From a virus (lineage: Duplodnaviria > Heunggongvirae > Uroviricota > Caudoviricetes): 25,283 nucleotides of DNA. Below, in pieces: positions 1,576 to 25,283 of the stretch (position 1 is the first letter of the stretch; each line of letters begins with the position of its first letter). The notes below the pieces were generated by a model. That model ran no database searches, was not told the DNA's origin, and worked only from the letters and a program-made list of their open reading frames with translations. The DNA lies in IMG/VR virus record IMGVR_UViG_2597490260_000006. One strand, given 5' to 3'. The position numbers and the translations under genes are program-made.

Positions 1576-4500
1576 TCAGCTAATCGTGATGCCTGCAGTG
1601 GCTTTCTTCATCACAACAACCAGCAAATCGCTGATACTTGCTGTGGGATACCAGCCATTTACCCACCATGCTGATACAGAAAACTCCAGCGTCATGTCGC
1701 CGCGACCAGCAGGCATATCAATAACACCACTGTAAACCAGCGTATTATCCATCGCGGTACGGTTATAAATTTCAGCACCGTTTTTCTTCACTATCAGGCG
1801 GCATGACGAATAAGTATCGCTGTTCTCCCGCTCATGTCTGGCACCGCTGAAAGCCACCGCCGGAATAACAATCTGCCGGTTAAACGGCTGATCGTCATAA
1901 ACCCTGACGGTAATGGTTCCTGATGGCCAACGCTTCGGTGCACGGGAGTCACGAGGGAAAGCCTTACCCACTGTTTTAACGAGATCGCCTTCAATCTGGT
2001 TTGCAGACAGTTTCCCTCTGATGACACAGTTCTCGTTAATGGTGACATTATTGAGCGTGCCGGTATTCGCCGTGATGGCTCCACTGATATCCGCATTGCG
2101 GGCTGTCAGCCTGCCATCCGGCGTCAGGGAAAACGTCGGAGGATTGCCGGATGACGTGATGCTCACCGCAAACAGTCGCTTCAGGAACACGTCGTTCATG
2201 AACAGCTGATTCCCCTGCGCCACAAACAGCGGCGTGGTGTTGCCGTTCTCCGGGGTAATCATCGCAATGCGATCGGCCTGCAGCAGAATGTTACTCAGGG
2301 TCTGACCATCAACATCCTCAATCCCCGCACCAATCCCGGCCACATAGGGAATACCGTTTTTTGTTTTCTGCACCTTCAGCATATACATGGCATTCAGCTC
2401 ATTGCGCGTGTCTGACTGAACCCGCTGGATTTGCTGTATGGTCACGGCCTGGTCACCCAGCTTTTTATCCGTGGTCGAGGTAATTTCACTCCCTTTTTTA
2501 TCCACGTACTGGCGGACCTGTGCTATCTGTCGGGCGTTTTCTGACTGCCCCTGGCTGACAGTCTGTGAGATTTCACTGCTCACCCGGTCCACTTTCTGGC
2601 TCACCTGCGCGATGGCCAGTGTCTGATCCTCATTCTTTTTCGCAACCAGCTGCGTGAGGCTGTTTTCCGCCTTCCCGATTTTCCGGGTCACTTCTGCGAT
2701 ATCCGTGTCCATCCGCTGACGGATATCTTCTTCCAGTTGCGTGACCTCCATACGCAGCGCTGAAGCATCAATGCGCTCTTTCAGTGCCTGACCCAGAAGC
2801 GTCTCATCTATCAGCCCCCGGAAAATTTCCAGATACCCTTCACCATCATTGCTGGGCTGCCCGCTGGCTTCCACAAAAGCAGATTTTCCCACCAGGTTGA
2901 CGCTTCGCACGTAAAACCAGAAATCCGTCCCCGGCTTAATCCGGCTCCCCTGGACAGTCCACTGACTGCCGGTCCCCAGATAACGGGCAGATTTTTCCAC
3001 CTGTGCTGTGTTCGTGATGCGTTTTTCTGAGAACCAGAATTCAAACTGTACCGTCGGGTCATACACCGCAAGACGCGGGACCGCCGTTATCTGAAAATAC
3101 CCCGGCGTCAGCTCAATGGTGGCGGGTTTTGCAGGTGCGTTAATCCGGAACGATACCGACGCCGGATCGCCCTGCTGTCCCCGGGCATTTACCGCCCGGA
3201 CCGTCAGCGTGTAACGCCCCAGCGCCAGCTGCCTGAAGCGGTAAGTGGTTTCCGCCGTCCGGGCCGTGCTGACCAGCCGCTCACTGCCGTCATCCGCTGT
3301 TACGGTCAGACGGAGCAGGAAGCTCACGCCCTTCACCACCTTCGGCGTGTCCCAGCGCGCCAGCACCTGATATTCCCCGCTGTCTGCGGTGACTTCGGCG
3401 GTCAGGTGCTGCACCGCTGGCGGCGTGACACCATTCACCGTGCCGCTCTGGTCGCCGTCAAAGTGCGCTCCGTTATCCACGATGGCCTCTTTTTCCGGCA
3501 CATGCTGCACGGCGGTGATGGCATACGTGCCGTCGTCGTTCTCACGGATACTCACGCAGCGGAACAGTCGCTGGCGCAGCGTCGGCAGCTTCAGCCCCCA
3601 TACGCTGTATTCAGCAACACCGTCAGGAACACGGCTCACTTTTACCTTCACGCCGTCGGTGACGGACTGAACCTCCACGCTGACCGGATTGCCACTTCCG
3701 TCAACCAGGCTTATCAGCGTGGTACCGGAGGATGGCAGCGTGATTTCACGGTCGAGCGTCAGCGTCCGGGTCTGGCTGTTCACCGCCAGCACTCGCCCGC
3801 CGGTGCTGATACCGGCATAGTCATCATCGCAGATTTCAATGACATCGCCCGGTACATGGCGAAGCCCTTCAGCACCCACGCTGAAGTCCACGGTCTGCGT
3901 TTCCAGCAGCTCCGTTTTAATCAGCCACAGCCCGGCGCGGTGTGCCTGCCCCCGACTGGTACAGCCAAAGGCATCCATCTTCGTGACGTTACGACCGTAA
4001 CGGAGAATGGCCTGCGTATCTTCAACAAGCTCTGTCGCCGTCTCCCAGCCGTTATCCGGGTCAATCCAGTTCACCTCAACGGCATTATGGCGGTCCTTCA
4101 GGGCGCTGAAGCTGTAGCGGAACGGCGCGCCATCATCCGGCATCACCACATTACTGCGGTTATAGGTCCACACCTTATCCGACGGTCGGTCCTGCACGAA
4201 CGTCAGCGTCTGCCCGTTCCATACCGGCATACAGCGCATCGCCGAACAGAAATCACTGAGCACATCCCACGCCTTACGCTGTGTGGTCAGGTACGCATTA
4301 CAGGTGATGCGCGGCTCCGTGCCACCAAAACCATCCGGCACCGACTGGTCGCAATACTGTCCGATGACATACAGCGCCCATTTGTCCACATCCGCCGCAC
4401 CAAGACGTTTCCCCATGCCGTAGCGCGGATGGGTCAGCATATCCCACAGACACCATGCCATGTTGTTGCTGTATGCCGGTTTAAACGTTCCGTCCCAGAT

Positions 4501-5274
4501 ACCGCTGTATTGCCGCCTCTGCGGGTTATAGTTCGACGGCACCTGCAGAATGCGCCCGCGAAGATGATAATTACGACTCACCTGCTGGCTGCCGAACTGT
4601 TCCGAGTCCACCTGCACGCCGACCAGTGCCGTGTTCGGGTAGCACTGTTTCACATCGATGATTTCGGTGTATGACGACCAGAGCGTTTTGTTCTGCAGCT
4701 GGTCTGTGGTGCTGTCCGGTGTCATCCTGCGCATCCGGATATTGAACGGGCGCGGAGGCAGATTATCCACCACCACCGAGGCCAGATACTGCGAGGTGGT
4801 TTTGCCCTTAATGGTGATGTCTTTTTCCGTCACCCAGCCACCGTTACGTTGTATCTGAACCAGCAGGCGAACTTCCGACGGATTCCGGTCCCCCTTTGAA
4901 GTGGTTTCCACCAGAGCCTGCACACCGAAGGTAAAGCGCAGACGGTCGATGTTTGCAGACGTGATGGTCCGGGTGATCGGCGTGTCATATTTCACTTCCG
5001 TACCCAGCACCGTCTCGGATCCGGAGGATTCAAAACCCTCCGGCGGTGTCTGCTCCTGCTCACCTGCCCGGAACACCACCGTGACACCGGCGATGTTGGT
5101 ATTCCCTTCACTGTCCAGCACCGGCGTACTGTTCAGCAGCACGCTTTTTAATCCATCCACCGGACCTTCTATCGGTCCTTCGCTGATGGCATCGATCACA
5201 CTCAGTAACTGCGTGGATTTCAGGTTGTCCTTCGCTTCGCGCGGGGTATGCCCCTTACTGCTGCCTTTACCCAT
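1576..5274 (-). CDS. J: Tail tip / host specificity protein J (central fibre)
   Basis: 1232 aa; N-terminus [44 protein letters not shown]... matches recalled lambda J over a long stretch; GGAG 8 nt upstream of the ATG. The C-terminal roughly 400 aa, including a coiled-coil-like segment, differ from lambda J. Confidence 0.9.
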
Positions 5275-19689: not shown

Positions 19690-20180
19690 TACTCCTCCTG
19701 CTGTAATTCCTCCTCATCATCCGCACCTGCTTCGGTCACCCGCAGGGCTATCTGATCGCGCAGATCATCAATAATGGACTGAACACGGCTCACAGCGGCA
19801 GGCTGCAGGCCGCAGTCACGTTCCAGAATATCCGGTAATGTCTCCAGCACCTGCACGACCGCTTTTGCCCAGATGGCAAACTCCCGTCTGACATCACTGG
19901 CCGGAATGAGTTGTGCCGTTTCCTGTTCGAACTTAAGACGCTCACGTTCAGACTGATACCAGGCTTTGCGTTCATGTGGATCCATTTCGCCCTCAGCAAC
20001 CGGCGGTGGTAACCCCATAAATTCAGTCAGAATATCGGTCAACCGGTATAGCTTGAGTTTGTCATGTCCACCAGCGGGACGAATGTTTTTCAGTCTTGCC
20101 ACGACAGTCTGGCGGTGCAGACCAGATAAAGCCGCCAGTTGATTAATATTCAGCATCAGGTTTTTCAACTCATGATCCAT
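19689..20180 (-). CDS. Terminase small subunit (Nu1-like)
   Basis: 163 aa; N-terminal helix-turn-helix-like segment LNINQLAALSGLHRQTVVARLKN; acidic C-terminus; GGAGG upstream of the ATG; sits directly upstream of the large subunit and downstream of the candidate cos site. Confidence 0.75.
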   Translation of the reverse strand: MDHELKNLMLNINQLAALSGLHRQTVVARLKNIRPAGGHDKLKLYRLTDILTEFMGLPPPVAEGEMDPHERKAWYQSERERLKFEQETAQLIPASDVRREFAIWAKAVVQVLETLPDILERDCGLQPAAVSRVQSIIDDLRDQIALRVTEAGADDEEELQQEE

Positions 20181-20210
20181 ATTTCCTCCGGAGAGCTTTA
20201 AACATGCATC

Positions 20211-20280
20211 GTGCGAACAACTTTAAGAAAACGCGTTCGATGTCGAACAAAAAACACTCAATTCGACATGCAAAAAACAA
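20211..20280. promoter_or_regulatory. Repeated TCGAAC-containing motifs upstream of the terminase small subunit gene (candidate cosB-type binding sites)
   Basis: Within 100 bp of the Nu1-like start: CGAACAA (20214-20220), near-palindrome GTTCGA-TG-TCGAAC (20235-20248), TCGAACAAAAAAC and TTCGACATGCAAAAAAC. Function as terminase-binding sites is inference. Confidence 0.4.
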
Positions 20281-20344
20281 ATAACCATTAATAATCAATA
20301 AGATGCAAAGATGATGGTGGCCAATAAAAATGCAAAAACTAGCC

Positions 20345-20370
20345 TTTTTCCGCGACGCTCCCGCCCCGTG
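20345..20370. other. Candidate cosN (cohesive end site)
   Basis: Late-strand sequence GGGGCGGGAGCGTCGCGG resembles the recalled lambda left end GGGCGGCGACCTCGCGG (shared GGGCGG and TCGCGG flanks), about 170 bp upstream of the Nu1-like start, comparable to the lambda spacing. Confidence 0.45.
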
Positions 20371-20817
20371 GCAGGCCCCCCCACCGGGAGGACCCGTCAG
20401 CCTGACAGCCATAACGAACGTCTGATACAGCCCTTACATGAATGGCATCGGGATAATCCAGAAAGGAATAGCATCGACCCACAAGAATCTGTGTGAGTGT
20501 CCTGTTTCTTCCACCCCCGCACAGGACTGGCGAGCATGAGGGACAACCCCGCGAACCATAACCGCGCTGATGACAGGACTGGCCCGGCTTGTATTGCTTC
20601 CAGCCTTCGCTTTTGTGGCTTTTGCAATAGCCTGACGGATCTGTGGTGGTATTGCGGTAGCCGCGAACACGGCAGGTTTTTGGGGTTCGTGGGGGCATAT
20701 GTACTCCAATGAAGAAGCCACCAACATAGCCTCCTCCATTCATCGTGAAACTATTTTCATCTACCCAGTAATGAATTCTTTGAAGAGTTGTGATCAATAC
20801 AACTCGCTAATGGAGAG

Positions 20818-20841
20818 GCTTGTCTCACACGTGAGACAAGC
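20818..20841. repeat. 24-bp near-perfect palindrome (11-bp inverted repeat, 2-bp centre)
   Basis: GCTTGTCTCAC-AC-GTGAGACAAGC read directly from the sequence; about 80 bp upstream of the small plus-strand ORF. Confidence 0.9.
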
Positions 20842-20920
20842 TTCCTGTTTGATTTACTGGACAGTATAGGAGGACAGAATGCCTTCCTCACTCGAATAAC
20901 ATCAATTAAGGAGGTTCAAC

Positions 20921-21043
20921 ATGTTTCATTCCACAAGTCATCAGGCTGTAATTATGGCAGCATCAGTTTGTGCCACAGACCTTTTCCGCTTCACTTTGAG
21001 CCTGATTCATTTCTACCTGACCGGCTCGCCTCTATCTTTCTAA
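20921..21043 (+). CDS. Small ORF (40 aa) with strong ribosome-binding site, antisense to the late transcript
   Basis: AAGGAGG 7 nt upstream of the ATG; encodes MFHSTSHQAVIMAASVCATDLFRFTLSLIHFYLTGSPLSF. Below the ORF track size cutoff. No family recognised; coding status is unproven. Confidence 0.4.
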   Translation: MFHSTSHQAVIMAASVCATDLFRFTLSLIHFYLTGSPLSF

Positions 21044-21162
21044 TCCCCGATTAATCCAAATTTCACTGCCATAATGCCGACATTCTCTGCCATTGTTGGC
21101 TCCGTTTATCCGTTAAAAGGGATATCAGTTAAGTTATCCCGTGCAGGGTATAAGCCATTATC

Positions 21163-21192
21163 AAAGCCACTCTGTAGGGAGTGGCTTTTGTA
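21163..21192 (+). terminator. Plus-strand intrinsic terminator-like hairpin
   Basis: AAAGCCACU-CUGUAGGG-AGUGGCUUU followed by UG; about 120 nt downstream of the small plus-strand ORF. Confidence 0.4.
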
Positions 21193-21397
21193 ATGGCAAT
21201 AAAAAGCCCCGCGAATGCGAGGCTAAATCCTGGTATTTGTAATGACTGGCTCTTATCTCAACGCAGCCCCTTACCGCGCGCAAGATGCTCAATATCAAGC
21301 ATCAGCAATGAGATGTTTAATCTGGATTCACTCCAGAAGTGATCACCATCCTGTCTACAGAGCCAGATGTGAAGGATGATGAGTAAAATTATCGCTA

Positions 21398-21880
21398 TCA
21401 TCGAAGGCATTGCGTCCTGATGTATTCCTGAAGCGTTCTCAGTGCTGTTTGGTCGCGGATAATTCCGTCCCGGATACCGAGAACGTTTCGTCCAGCAACT
21501 GGAGAGAGTTCGACGGTGGCATCATTGCCCATGCCGGAGGCGCTGGAGGTTTCGGCTGAGGATGGCACAGGGCATTTTCCTTTGACGAACACCCGACCAC
21601 CATTATCAAGCTTGCGCCGAAGAGCATCATTTTTAGCTTTCGCATCAGCTAACTCCTTCGTGTATTTAGCATCGAGTGCATCAGCAGCACGCTGGCGCTG
21701 CTGCATGTCAGTAATGGTGGCGGTCGCCTGCTTCAGCTCACTGACTTTTTTATCACGCTGTTCTTTATAGGCGATGGCGTTATCACGGTAATGATTGACC
21801 GCCCACGACAGGCAGACGATGATGCAGATAACCAGAGCATAAATAATCGCGGCGACTCTGCTCACTGATCTATCCCCCAA
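21398..21880 (-). CDS. Rz: Rz i-spanin (inner membrane spanin subunit)
   Basis: 160 aa; N-terminal transmembrane segment ([20 protein letters not shown]) followed by a charged coiled-coil-like region; directly downstream of the endolysin gene and containing an embedded lipoprotein ORF. Confidence 0.85.
21439..21645 (-). CDS. Rz1: Rz1 o-spanin (outer membrane lipoprotein), embedded within Rz in another frame
   Basis: 68 aa; signal peptide with lipobox (LIMVVGCSS) followed by proline-rich mature sequence ([16 protein letters not shown]); entirely inside the Rz coordinates. Confidence 0.8.
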
Positions 21881-22395
21881 CAGGCTAATGCGCTTTCCTG
21901 GTCACGACGAATAACTTGCCCATAGCAGTTATTTGAACGTATGCGGCAATCGCGCCCACCATCTTTTATCCACCAACGAATCGCCTCACATGCACCCTTA
22001 CGATCACCGGCATTCAGCCGCTTATAAAACGTCGACGGGAAACACTTACCAGGGCCAATGTTATAGGGACAGAATGACGCGATACCGGCTTTCTGTGGCT
22101 CGGTCAGTGGAACTTTTATATTGCGCTCCACCCATGCCAGCGCCTTATCCCGCTCAATGGCGTTAACCTGGGCGCATTTTTCCTTCGACAGTTTCATTCC
22201 CGGAATAACAGGTTTACCGTCCACCATCGTTGCTCCCCGACAGATGGTCCATATGCCGGAGCCATCGCGGTATGCAGTGATGTGATTCCCCTCTTTTTCA
22301 TCCAGAAACTGATCGAGAATGTCAGGCGCGGGCGCACCGACGGCAATCAGTGCCAGAACAGCAGCCGACAGGCTGTATCTGATTTTTACGTTCAT
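21862..22395 (-). CDS. R: SAR endolysin (lysozyme-like, signal-arrest-release type)
   Basis: 177 aa; weakly hydrophobic Ala/Gly-rich N-terminal segment ([16 protein letters not shown]), then a lysozyme-like region ([24 protein letters not shown]); resembles the lysozymes of phage 21 and K-12 cryptic prophages as I recall them. Confidence 0.85.
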
Positions 22396-22458
22396 GGATA
22401 TTTATCAGGATTTATCGGTTTCTGCCCACGGACAGGTTTATCTGTTCCGGTCAGTGAC

Positions 22459-22809
22459 TTAAGGTTGTGATTCCGGAGGAGTCTTCAGAGAACCAGTAAT
22501 TCTTCCCGGTAGCTTTCCTTTGTAGGTTATCCATACATTCTGCGCCTCTAAAATTACGGGGCGCTTTTCCGGCGACTGCTCATCCCCTTCACATAACCCG
22601 GCAGCAACATCCAGGAAGACCTGTCTGATGCTCATTCTGGCTGCTGCCTCATAAAACTCCAGCGCGGCACCTTCAACACGGTCCAGCGAGATGTCCAGGT
22701 CAAAAATTTCACCGTCAAAGCGTTTTTTGTCCCGTAACGCTAAAGTTACCGTAACTTTATTCTCAAAATTGCGGATCCCTTTCACAATCAGTTCATAGTT
22801 TTGAGTCAT
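22459..22809 (-). CDS. Hypothetical protein located between holin and endolysin (possibly related to YdfR-like prophage proteins)
   Basis: 116 aa, tightly packed 4 nt after the holin stop. The family name is from memory of cryptic-prophage gene order and is not verified. Confidence 0.6.
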   Translation of the reverse strand: MTQNYELIVKGIRNFENKVTVTLALRDKKRFDGEIFDLDISLDRVEGAALEFYEAAARMSIRQVFLDVAAGLCEGDEQSPEKRPVILEAQNVWITYKGKLPGRITGSLKTPPESQP

Positions 22810-22813
22810 TGAA

Positions 22814-23029
22814 TTACTCTCCCCGTGCAGCCTTACGCTTGTCTTCTCTGATTTTGAAGTACAGATTTGTCAGATAAGTCAGGAAGCCCAGAACCAGACT
22901 CCCCAGTACACCAATCGCAGCCCACTGTGACGGACTGACCTGATCAAGCCACTGTAAAAACCAGTAGCCAGCACTGCCTGCGGAGGTGCCATAGGCGACA
23001 CCCGTTGTTAACTTATCCATGGATTTCAT
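22814..23029 (-). CDS. S: Class II holin (phage 21 S-type pinholin) with dual-start motif
   Basis: Start trimmed to [71 protein letters not shown] (71 aa), which closely matches the recalled phage 21 S protein. Two ATGs are separated by Lys-Ser (MKSM). GAGGTGGGG RBS upstream. Confidence 0.85.
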
Positions 23030-23068
23030 AACCCCACCTCGCAGATGCGGGTGCTGTGTAATGGAAAT

Positions 23069-23090
23069 AAAAAGGCCACCTGACGTGGCC
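23069..23090 (-). terminator. Intrinsic terminator immediately downstream of the methyltransferase gene and upstream of the holin
   Basis: Minus strand reads GGCCAC-GUCAG-GUGGCC followed by TTTTTATTT, 7 nt after the methyltransferase stop. Confidence 0.55.
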
Positions 23091-23096
23091 ACCAGA

Positions 23097-24149
23097 TTAT
23101 TTCCCCACCAGCTCGTTTATCTCTTTCACTGTCTGGTTAAACCGCTCTGACTCAAGCTCAACACCTAAGGCCCGACGCCCCAGCGCCATTGCTGCTTTTA
23201 TTGTGGAACCGGATCCCATAAAAAAATCAGCAACCAGATCACCAGGTCGACTACTGGCATTGATTATTTGCCTGAGCATATCCGCCGGTTTCTCACACGG
23301 ATGTTTACCCGGGTAGAACTGAACGGGTTTATGCATCCAGACATCGGTATAAGGCACGGAGACTGATACGGAGAAATAGCGCCGGAGAGATTTAAACTCA
23401 TCCAGCAATTCAGAATATTTGCGATTCAGTGAATCATAAGATGCCACCAGCTGGTGGTGTGGTTGTTCCAGTTGTTGTTCCTGAAACTTCTCTGCCGCTA
23501 TACGGGAAAACAGTGCCTGTAACTTCCGATAGTCAGCCTCATTCGGCAACTGCCACTGACTGGCACCAAACCAGTGGGAAACCATATTTTTCTTACCTGT
23601 GGCTTCGGCAATTTGTTTTGCCGTTATACCCAGTTCGGCACGAGCATCCCTGAAATACGATATCAGCGGTGCCATTATGTGCTGTTTGAGTTCCCTTTCT
23701 TTTGCCGCATAGCCGTCACTTTTGCCGCGATATGGCCCCTGGTAATGTTCAGCAAACAGAACGCGCTCTGTGGCAGGAAAATATGCGCGCAGACTTTCTT
23801 TATTACACCCATTCCAACGTCCGGACGGCTTCGCCCAGATGATATGGTTAAGCACGTTGAAACGTTCACGCATCATGATCTCAATATCAGATGCCAGGCG
23901 ATGCCCACAGAACAGGTAAAGGCTTCCGGCAGGTTTTAACACCCGCCAGAACTGGGCCAGACAGTGGTCCAGCCACTTAAGGTAATCTTCGTCCCCTTTC
24001 CACTGATTGTCCCAACCGTTGGGTTTCACCTTGAAGTACGGCGGATCGGTAACAATCAGGTCAATGGAATCATCAGGCAGGGACTGAATAAAATGCAGGC
24101 AATCAGCGTTGATTAAATCAACACTGTTTATTTTTACAGTATTTTTCAT
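23097..24149 (-). CDS. DNA methyltransferase, N6-adenine or N4-cytosine type, beta-class motif order, no adjacent restriction gene
   Basis: 350 aa; DPPY motif near the N-terminus (LIVTDPPYF) and FxGxG AdoMet-binding motif near the C-terminus ([13 protein letters not shown]); a helix-turn-helix-like segment in the middle. No obvious Shine-Dalgarno before the ATG. Confidence 0.85.
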
Positions 24150-24299
24150 GGATCAGTAAGCGTAACTCTGGTAGGCTCACTCTGCTTTTGCGCTAAAGCA
24201 GTGGGCCGTGGTTCGCTTGTGACCAGTAAGCATGAGCGAATGGCTGGCAGGTGCTACCAACACCCACCAGCCGCCCATTTTCACAGCAGGAAACCGCCA

Positions 24300-24503
24300 T
24301 TACTGGCAGCGTCTGAATTTATTCCCGTATCCGCCGTTATCCTTCGCCAGACCCGCCAGAACTAACTGAGTCAGTATTAACTGGCACCGGGCTTCGCTTA
24401 CTCCGGTAGTTCTCGTCATCATGCGTGGCGTTACCCACTTGTCAGCAGGTAAGAAATGAAGGACTGCGGCGGCGGTTTCTGTCATATCTTGCTGTTTTAG
24501 CAT
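24300..24503 (-). CDS. Small putative DNA-binding protein (winged-helix-like), function unknown
   Basis: Start placed at the second ATG (MLKQQDMTETAAAVLHFLPADKWVTPRMMTRTTGVSEARCQLILTQLVLAGLAKDNGGYGNKFRRCQ, 67 aa), with AGAAGGGA 7 nt upstream. A helix-turn-helix-like segment is my reading, not a database match. Confidence 0.5.
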   Translation of the reverse strand: MLKQQDMTETAAAVLHFLPADKWVTPRMMTRTTGVSEARCQLILTQLVLAGLAKDNGGYGNKFRRCQ

Positions 24504-24625
24504 GTCTTTTTCCCTTCTGGTTAACATGACATACCAATAACTCTTGTCTAAAAAGCCAGCAAGATAAAAGGTCAGTATTCACGACCACCAGCGTGTTTAC
24601 TGTACTGCACCAAGTTTACAGGTAC

Positions 24626-24645
24626 AAAAAAACCGCTCAGCGGCG
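24626..24645 (-). terminator. Weak terminator-like hairpin with seven-T tract
   Basis: Minus strand reads GCCGC-UGA-GCGGU followed by TTTTTTTG; short stem and 3-nt loop, so it is weak. Confidence 0.3.
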
Positions 24646-24711
24646 GGTTTAAGTTGTGTGGCGAAGTAACCACTCTTAACAGCATATTTGATTTTTTACG
24701 ATTGTAAACGG

Positions 24712-24739
24712 TTGATTATTCATCTCCAATAAAAATAAT
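24712..24739 (+). promoter_or_regulatory. Sigma-70-like promoter for the lipoprotein gene
   Basis: TTGATT (24712-24717), 16-nt spacer, AATAAT (24734-24739); the ATG is about 35 nt downstream. Confidence 0.5.
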
Positions 24740-24773
24740 TGTGTAGGTATGCCCTTAACAATGGATAAGAAAC

Positions 24774-25220
24774 ATGAATAAAATGACTGTACTATTACTT
24801 AGCGCAACTATCATTTCAGGTTGTACTTCTTCCGTACCATTGATAAAAAAAACTCAATCAGGAAAACCTGAGGGGGTTTATCAAAATACGACAAAAGATA
24901 AAGTCAAAGATGCCCTTGTGAATTACTGCAATAGTAGAGGGTTGATAATTTACAACGCTGATAACAGCAGTGTTATATGTGGTAAAGAACTGGAAGGCGG
25001 GTCTGCTGTTTTTGGACAAATGTTAATCGGCAATGCCTATTCAACAACCCCGGTATCAAAAGTCAGATTTACTATCGCTCAAGTTAATAACGATACAAAA
25101 GTGTGGGCCGATATGTGGATGGAAACTCAAATGGCAATGGGGCAAGTACAACAAATGGCTATAACAGACAACGCAAGCAAAAACACTATCCAACAACGTC
25201 TTGATGAATTAAAACCTTAA
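24774..25220 (+). CDS. Putative lipoprotein of unknown function (AT-rich accessory gene)
   Basis: 148 aa; signal peptide with lipobox (LLLSATIISGCTSS); gene is visibly AT-rich relative to the flanking phage genes; opposite orientation to the late operon. Confidence 0.75.
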   Translation: MNKMTVLLLSATIISGCTSSVPLIKKTQSGKPEGVYQNTTKDKVKDALVNYCNSRGLIIYNADNSSVICGKELEGGSAVFGQMLIGNAYSTTPVSKVRFTIAQVNNDTKVWADMWMETQMAMGQVQQMAITDNASKNTIQQRLDELKP

Positions 25221-25240
25221 GTAAATTAATTAAATAAAAT

Positions 25241-25264
25241 GGGGAGAATAAATCGACTCCCCAC
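25241..25264. terminator. Hairpin downstream of the lipoprotein gene
   Basis: UGGGGAG-AAUAAAUCGA-CUCCCCA; the T-rich tract lies on the minus-strand side, so it may terminate a minus-strand transcript entering from beyond the window. Confidence 0.3.
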
Positions 25265-25283
25265 ACATTAAACTGATTCAATT

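Follow-up and report, generated by a model that had tools for sequence, protein, structure and literature searches.

The window analysed here is a stretch of 25,283 nucleotides (nt) of tailed-phage DNA (IMG/VR record IMGVR_UViG_2597490260_000006; Caudoviricetes), and the subject of this account is an AT-rich cargo cassette near its right end, which carries the gene for a small predicted lipoprotein between the gene for antiterminator Q and the late promoter pR'. A preliminary description of the same DNA had proposed a 148-amino-acid (aa) lipoprotein gene within 24626-25264, transcribed away from the phage late genes. The open reading frame (ORF) is present at 24774..25220 on the + strand, with a lipobox cysteine at residue 17 (Cys17), and it stands opposite to all other genes of the window, which lie on the − strand and comprise tail, head, terminase, Rz, lysozyme, DUF1327, S21-type holin, and N6/N4 DNA methyltransferase genes. 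The arrangement had been put as divergence from the late operon; this is correct and can be sharpened, since the candidate cargo promoter and pR' stand back-to-back and the gene and Q converge.

The ORF begins with the N-terminus MNKMTVLLLSATIISG, followed directly by Cys17, whose codon occupies 24822-24824. This signal peptide and lipobox, LLLSATIISG-C (24774..24824, +), fits the PROSITE-type lipobox rule, with lipidation predicted at Cys17; the pattern tested ([LVI][ASTVI][GAS]C) was satisfied by 19 of 21 family members, and the cysteine itself stands in every sequence of one family alignment (A1) and in at least 90% of another (A3). The mature lipoprotein would comprise 132 aa, with a mass of about 14.5 kDa and an isoelectric point of 8.5. 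Residues +2 to +4 are T-S-S, and homologues have A or T at +2; since no Asp stands at that position, the Lol sorting rule predicts that the 148-aa product is sorted to the outer membrane. Ratios of nonsynonymous to synonymous substitution (dN/dS) against homologues fall between 0.07 and 0.24 wherever dS is computable, synonymous sites being saturated, and such values indicate purifying selection on the gene. These ratios stand beside a full-length match to PHROG 3152 and an AlphaFold2 (AF2) model with a predicted local distance difference test (pLDDT) score of 85, and the gene is, by these measures, one that encodes a real, selected protein.

The preliminary description had allowed that the gene might prove to be host chromosomal DNA beyond the prophage boundary. 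It lies instead between Q and the late genes in chromosomal prophages and in the complete Escherichia phage genomes PhiR40_1 and PhiR55_1, to which window positions 24150-25283 are 99.8% identical over their full length. In PhiR40_1 the lipoprotein gene stands on the other strand, flanked on one side by the gene for Q (121 aa) and on the other by the late genes, and a prophage of E. coli SLK172 has the same layout, its protein (WP_001038608.1) being annotated "hypothetical protein." Among 5426 complete E. coli genomes, 184 (about 3%) have this layout at full length, carriers include both human and animal isolates, and the exact lipoprotein sequence is found on at least 1000 contigs. Searches of the literature on the phage name, accession WP_001038608, and PA-2 lc found no paper about this lipoprotein gene; a paper on the svsR small RNA was judged unrelated, as the svsR RNA lies at cI.

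Base composition sets the gene apart. Its GC content is 0.376, against 0.532±0.027 in the 24 other ORFs of the window (z = −5.8), and at third codon positions it is 0.315 against 0.560±0.044 (z = −5.6), which bears out the earlier remark that it is visibly lower in GC than its neighbors. The AT-rich cassette as a whole, delimited by homology boundaries and by composition, has a GC content of 0.36 and occupies 24710..25283 of the window; its left edge is the −35 element of pR', and its right edge falls about 22 nt past the window end, at the Q stop codon.

The interval 24626-25264 also holds, at about 24626-24709 on the − strand, what is by alignment the late promoter cassette pR'-qut-tR', a feature that the preliminary description had not recognized. 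In the textbook order, a late cassette runs from the Q gene through pR', a σ-dependent pause element, and a terminator to the late genes (bioRxiv 10.1101/651190). Here pR' (24681..24708, −) was found by scanning and aligns base for base with the copies in 933W, PA-2, Kati, and DLP12; it has a −35 element TTTACA at 24708-24703, a 16-nt spacer, and a −10 element TATGCT at 24686-24681, with a predicted start near 24674. The initial transcribed region (24645..24680, −), defined by alignment A2 and the 933W annotation, contains GTTAAGAGTGGTTAC, near-invariant at 24680-24666 and with its sole mismatch, G-A-TAAGAGTGGTTAC, in 933W; within it ACTTCGCC (24667-24660) aligns to the annotated "qut" of 933W. 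The promoter-proximal intrinsic terminator tR' (24626..24644, −) consists of GCCGCTGAGCGGT and a run of T residues and aligns with the terminator annotated in 933W just past qut; its stem spans 24644-24632 and the T run extends to 24626, so that the predicted leader RNA is about 48 nt long.

Several comparisons support this assignment. A four-way alignment keeps the −35 as TTTAC(A/G), the 16-nt spacer, the −10 as TAT(GCT/CAT), GTTAAGAGTGGTTAC, and the terminator AACCCGCCG…CGG with six or seven T residues. Phages Kati and ev243 have exactly two segments in common with this phage: one is the Q gene, whose DNA is about 83% identical, and the other is a block of 83 bp at window 24709-24627, which is 85.5% identical. 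When 24655-24715 served as query, 24655-24709 aligned, at 85.5% with the PA-2 lc record and at 78% over 55 bp with 933W, whose record across the aligned region reads "pR'; putative late promoter," "qut," and rho-independent terminator. DLP12 carries the block as well, with 60 bp (window 24686-24627) at 91.7%. Other lambdoid phages (mEp460, cdtI, and Stx2c phages) match the late-gene side only as far as about 24650-24687, and homology to mEp460, which is of the Q82 type, starts exactly at tR'. The Q protein shares 85% identity with DLP12 QuuD and Kati Q and 79% with Q933W, and is distantly related to Q21, whose structure has been solved; the pR'/qut/tR' cassette accompanies Q of the Q933W/QuuD type. 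In 933W, and likewise in H-19B, the entire order from Q to tR' is alike, with −35, spacing, −10, initial transcribed region, and terminator all in register; the 933W cargo (tRNAs and stx) is nevertheless placed differently, downstream of tR' and in the sense direction, whereas the cargo here lies upstream of pR' and antisense. A layout in which pR' would directly follow Q, with late transcripts running antisense through the lipoprotein gene, was considered and rejected, as every Q933/QuuD-type phage compared has the conserved block beyond the cargo as seen from Q.

Some features downstream of tR' may be recorded alongside. A second terminator-like hairpin (GGTCGTGAATACTGACC then TTTTAT) lies at 24570-24586 (−), about 45 nt beyond tR', and the first ORF past it (24300-24527, −) encodes 75 aa belonging to phrog_331, whose function is unknown, and weakly resembles MarR/Ren proteins. 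In mEp460 (locus L002), a tR'-like terminator is present twice, at 4644-4675 and at about 3970-3998, one copy being about 100 nt downstream of the Q82-type Q and the other at the point where the shared late region joins on. This pattern suggests that Q modules and late modules recombine at the tR'-like terminator.

Against this background the cargo cassette appears as additional DNA. Homology to Kati, ev243, PA-2, and 933W ends 1-2 nt upstream of the pR' −35 and resumes in the last codons of Q, just outside the window (L001 position 9162). About 600 bp of AT-rich DNA separate Q from pR' here, whereas the 933W copies of pR' and the 3' end of Q overlap. The position is one that other phages have used: a reverse-oriented gene for an OmpC-type porin occupies the same place between Q and pR' in ev243, Kati, PA-2, and DLP12. 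The likeness of these genes (lc of PA-2, nmpC of DLP12, and the "porin OmpC" of ev243 and Kati) to the gene described here lies in slot, orientation, and kind, each being an outer-membrane protein gene between a QuuD/Q933W-type Q and pR'-qut-tR'. The products differ, those of lc and nmpC being β-barrel porins of about 365 aa and the present one a 148-aa lipoprotein of an unrelated family; so does the spacing, since lc and nmpC lie about 370-400 bp from the pR' block, with CRP sites annotated there in PA-2, whereas the candidate promoter here abuts pR'. On this comparison, the predicted lipoprotein gene adds a second type of outer-membrane cargo to a Q-pR' slot that was already known. Work from the Schnaitman laboratory in the 1980s is said to have defined lc as a lysogenic-conversion gene, expressed from the prophage and altering the porin make-up of the outer membrane. 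In the cryptic prophage DLP12 of E. coli K-12 (L020 2030-4326), nmpC in the equivalent slot is interrupted by IS5, and the pR' block is still found between nmpC and essD (L020 4718-4777).

The preliminary description had credited the lipoprotein gene with a good σ70-like promoter; a site matching the consensus at 9 of 12 positions does exist (TTGATT-16-AATAAT, 24712..24739, +), with a predicted start near 24746, about 27 nt ahead of the ATG, but the word "good" is borne out weakly, the evidence being a consensus match in AT-rich DNA. The −35 of this candidate (24712-24717, +) is 3 bp from that of pR' (24703-24708, −), and the predicted starts of the two divergent promoters are about 72 bp apart. 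A site at 24755-24784 scores best, with 10 of 12 positions, but it covers the start codon and therefore cannot serve the lipoprotein ORF. At its other end, the lipoprotein gene faces the 3' end of Q across a stem-loop, GGGGAG-N10-CTCCCC (25241..25264), found by scanning and folding (free energies of −11.2 and −14.5 kcal/mol; z of −2.6 and −2.9) and common to the convergent lipoprotein and Q transcripts. On the − strand AUUUUAUUU comes directly after the stem-loop, which there scores as a terminator of transcription coming out of Q.

Homologues in other genomes indicate that the gene is mobile. Those at 50-72% identity all occur in prophage-like contexts and at varied positions: between tail genes K and I in Salmonella (L003); in a cargo cluster near K/I in Jejubacter (L004); between the tape measure gene and M in three Citrobacter-like loci (L005, L010, and L011) and in Photorhabdus (L019); in a P1-like element of Enterobacter (L006); and in Phytobacter (L007-L009) between a RecA-like gene and LexA-like/RusA genes, in a nin-like region. 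In six of seven loci the homologue is AT-rich relative to its own flanks, and a canonical intrinsic terminator directly follows the gene in L003, L004, L005, and L010. In Jejubacter (L004 1700-7550) and Photorhabdus (L019 5370-10600), big cargo clusters lie within the tail-tip genes beside the homologue, with Arc/HicB-like, Bro-N, KilA-N, helix-turn-helix (HTH) repressor, and P22 antirepressor domains. Morons have been defined as extra DNA of deviant GC content with a promoter and terminator of their own (PMC3594210). The lipoprotein cassette fits a phage moron, with expression in the lysogen predicted, because it is extra DNA relative to 933W, departs in GC content (z = −5.8), has a promoter-like site, has homologues with terminators, and occurs in varied slots. 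The proposal that this is a cargo gene was upheld in the parts open to sequence comparison, by the position inside the phage, the extra DNA, the foreign composition, the homologues in other cargo slots, and the porin precedent in the same slot.

Tail-linked placements raise a more specific idea, that the product masks the receptor of its own phage in the manner of Llp (T5) or Cor (φ80, N15, and HK022), binding and inactivating the outer-membrane receptor that its tail tip recognizes and so preventing superinfection and the loss of progeny on debris. Cor, Llp, and the HK97 gp15 moron are all envelope cargo that excludes superinfecting phages, and they often lie within tail clusters, as several homologues do here. 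The product is, moreover, a small predicted outer-membrane lipoprotein; six homologue loci (L003, L004, L005, L010, L011, and L019), representing five distinct placements, lie in the tail-tip cluster at H/M or K/I; and the Q-pR' slot of PA-2 holds lc, which reportedly alters the porin that PA-2 uses as its receptor. A protein that masked the receptor of its carrier should co-vary with the tail protein that binds that receptor, yet among the carrier phages no covariation of the lipoprotein with J or with the tape measure protein was found. The lipoproteins are 59-72% identical, whereas the J proteins of their carriers are about 30% identical with unrelated C-termini and the tape measures 24-45% identical; L010 and L011 even combine an identical lipoprotein with different J C-termini. 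Some homologues lie far from tail genes altogether (those in the P1-like element and the nin-like region), the protein resembles no annotated family in Pfam or PHROGs, it has no sequence relationship to Cor, Llp, or gp15, and HK97 gp15 is an inner-membrane protein rather than a lipoprotein. We therefore consider masking of the phage's own receptor unlikely. Absence of covariation argues instead that the cargo moves independently of the tail module, and that its target is more likely a conserved component of the host envelope than a phage component; the target is thus probably the host.

The protein family itself is large and has yielded little by way of function. Homology searches and structure prediction, which the preliminary description had proposed, gave the PHROG match and the AF2 model, and neither supplied a function: phrog_3152 is matched over residues 1-148 of 148 (expectation value, E, of 1.3e-104), and the family is without annotated function. 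Pfam and NCBIfam gave no match (at E ≤ 0.1, Pfam gave two unrelated sub-threshold hits), the Pfam scan matched neither the Bor family nor a porin domain, and no PADLOC defense family matched at E ≤ 1. Searching the PDB by sequence and by profile returned nothing for the lipoprotein domain, the only matches being to the PDZ part of fused relatives. A word-indexed search found 31 relatives, all in Enterobacterales, and with an exhaustive profile search the number rose to 823 cluster representatives at E ≤ 1e-3, 408 of them at E ≤ 1e-10. Among 93 members scanned against Pfam, 15 have a C-terminal PDZ domain, and there are single cases of TPR/YfiO, SHOCT, and SH3. The PDZ of the fused relatives is of the DegP type; named relatives are annotated "PDZ domain-containing protein" in Xanthomonas, Stenotrophomonas, and Sphingomicrobium, and their chromosomal contexts resemble genomic islands or prophages, which is uninformative on function. 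Individual fusions of the lipoprotein domain to PDZ, with or without SHOCT, include proteins P0237, P0241, P0250, and others (L016-L018) of Xanthomonadales and Sphingomonadales.

Residues conserved across the family (alignments A1 and A3) are Cys17, T27-x-S29-G30, Cys52, Cys69, G86-N87-x-Y89-S90-x-x-P93, M120, and G123-Q124, and Cys52 and Cys69 may form a periplasmic disulfide; IGNAYSTTP and ETQMAMGQ are conserved loops. The predicted structure is a single α+β domain that resembles the helix-grip, KA1, BamC-N, and Flpp3 folds. Identity to helix-grip and KA1-like domains (the BamC N-domain, Francisella Flpp3 (DUF3568), and DUF4468) is only 6-14%, with no profile match, and since the fold is common to functionally unrelated proteins it assigns no function.

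Proximity to the lysis genes invites the suggestion of a part in the lytic cycle, for example as an accessory lipoprotein of lysis or egress resembling an o-spanin, and weak PHROG matches to Rz-like spanins (E of 0.02-0.035) would seem to lend it some color. These matches span only the signal peptide and lipobox (residues 1-45), however, and the phage has its own Rz region at 21398-21880. Rz1 and other o-spanins have their genes alongside or inside that of the i-spanin, in the late lysis cassette, whereas the lipoprotein gene lies on the opposite strand, antisense to the late operon and upstream of pR', and its homologues occur far from any lysis genes. A lytic role is accordingly very improbable.

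Another parallel is Bor, described as a phage lipoprotein cargo gene (PMC3594210). The λ gene and its DLP12 counterpart BorD are alike in specifying a small outer-membrane lipoprotein as cargo of a lambdoid phage, transcribed against the late genes, and the same kind of gene in human and animal isolates of E. coli could be a host-interaction or virulence factor of the Bor/Iss type, expressed in the lysogen and raising serum resistance or adhesion. Yet Bor and BorD occupy a different slot, after Rz, and belong to another family without a sequence match to this one (no match to Bor or any other Pfam family was obtained), and Bor has a known serum-resistance phenotype. Homologues of the present protein extend to symbionts of insects and nematodes and to plant or soil bacteria (Photorhabdus, Xenorhabdus, Arsenophonus, and Phytobacter), and PDZ-fused ones to Xanthomonas, Stenotrophomonas, and Sphingomicrobium. 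Such a spread fits poorly with a function specific to mammalian serum, and we give a Bor-like role little credence.

Our reading of the locus as a whole is that a moron of about 600 bp, inserted between Q and pR', specifies a lysogen-expressed outer-membrane lipoprotein that acts on the envelope, and we assign this a probability of roughly 0.6. Host RNA polymerase with σ70 would transcribe the gene in the repressed prophage; the product would be lipidated at Cys17 and, by the sorting rule, delivered by the Lol pathway to the periplasmic face of the outer membrane, where it would act on some envelope component conserved among Enterobacterales. Once the lytic cycle begins, N-antiterminated transcription running antisense from Q, together with activity at pR', would be expected to turn the cargo down, and occupancy of pR' could interfere with the abutting candidate promoter. 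A periplasmic setting is in keeping with the many relatives that are lipoproteins fused to a DegP-type PDZ domain.

Several points weigh against this reading. In E. coli, H-NS often silences foreign genes of high AT content, and the lipoprotein gene may therefore be poorly expressed. The 1.2-kb region contains 6 σ70-like sites against 2.4±1.5 in shuffled sequence, chance matches being frequent in AT-rich DNA, and the candidate promoter is not conserved in homologues at other slots, where the upstream alignment kept only the ribosome-binding area. The stem-loop at 25241-25264 lacks a U-tract on the + strand, so that as a terminator for this copy of the gene it is doubtful, and the pR' and qut features of 933W carry the label "putative" in the record. 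Weak promoter evidence, a composition typical of H-NS targets, and the lack of any function assignable from Pfam, NCBIfam, or PADLOC are also what would be seen if the gene were a silent passenger, carried along in a gap between Q and pR' that tolerates it, shut off in E. coli, and useless to phage and host alike. A useless gene accords badly, however, with the purifying selection noted above (dN/dS 0.07-0.24), with cysteines and motifs conserved across at least 823 clusters, with repeated independent capture in different prophage slots, and with the exact protein on at least 1000 contigs, and we rate this alternative as improbable.

If the product does act on the envelope of the lysogen, the single most plausible role would be to hinder the entry of other phages, a suggestion that we make tentatively and at well below even odds; alternatively, it may protect or remodel the envelope. 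A broader conjecture, and a doubtful one, is that PHROG 3152 represents a new and widespread class of prophage-borne outer-membrane lipoproteins that target a conserved part of the host envelope and give broad, tail-independent exclusion of other phages or of colicins, or envelope protection of another kind. The PDZ-fused cellular relatives would then point to recognition of the C-termini of outer-membrane proteins, and the abutting promoters would silence the cargo when late transcription fires.

Other features of the window lie outside these questions. The methyltransferase gene (23097-24149, −) encodes a 350-aa N6/N4 DNA methyltransferase (PF01555, E of 2e-42) with an inserted HTH-like segment; no large gene of the late operon precedes it, the holin gene comes after it, and a late methylase in that position is common to mEp460, cdtI, and the Stx2c phages. 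Between Rz and the small terminase subunit, about 1.2 kb (20180-21400) with a GC content of 0.44-0.47 and no convincing ORF presumably contains cos. An Rfam scan of 20000-25283 returned only sub-threshold chance hits, those in 20180-21400 being to eukaryotic families.

The comparisons made here have consequences for both phage and host. Correct annotation of the pR' cassette matters for predicting the control of late genes and of toxin genes in Q933-type phages, and the gap between Q and pR' emerges as a reusable slot for reverse-oriented outer-membrane cargo, filled by a porin in some phages and apparently by a lipoprotein in others. The lipoprotein belongs to a large domain family that is without a Pfam model, mobile, under selection, and functionally uncharacterized. 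Prophage cargo genes are a main source of strain differences in the surface properties, phage sensitivity, and virulence of E. coli, and if the product of this one should turn out to exclude other phages, the result would matter for phage therapy and for competition among prophages.

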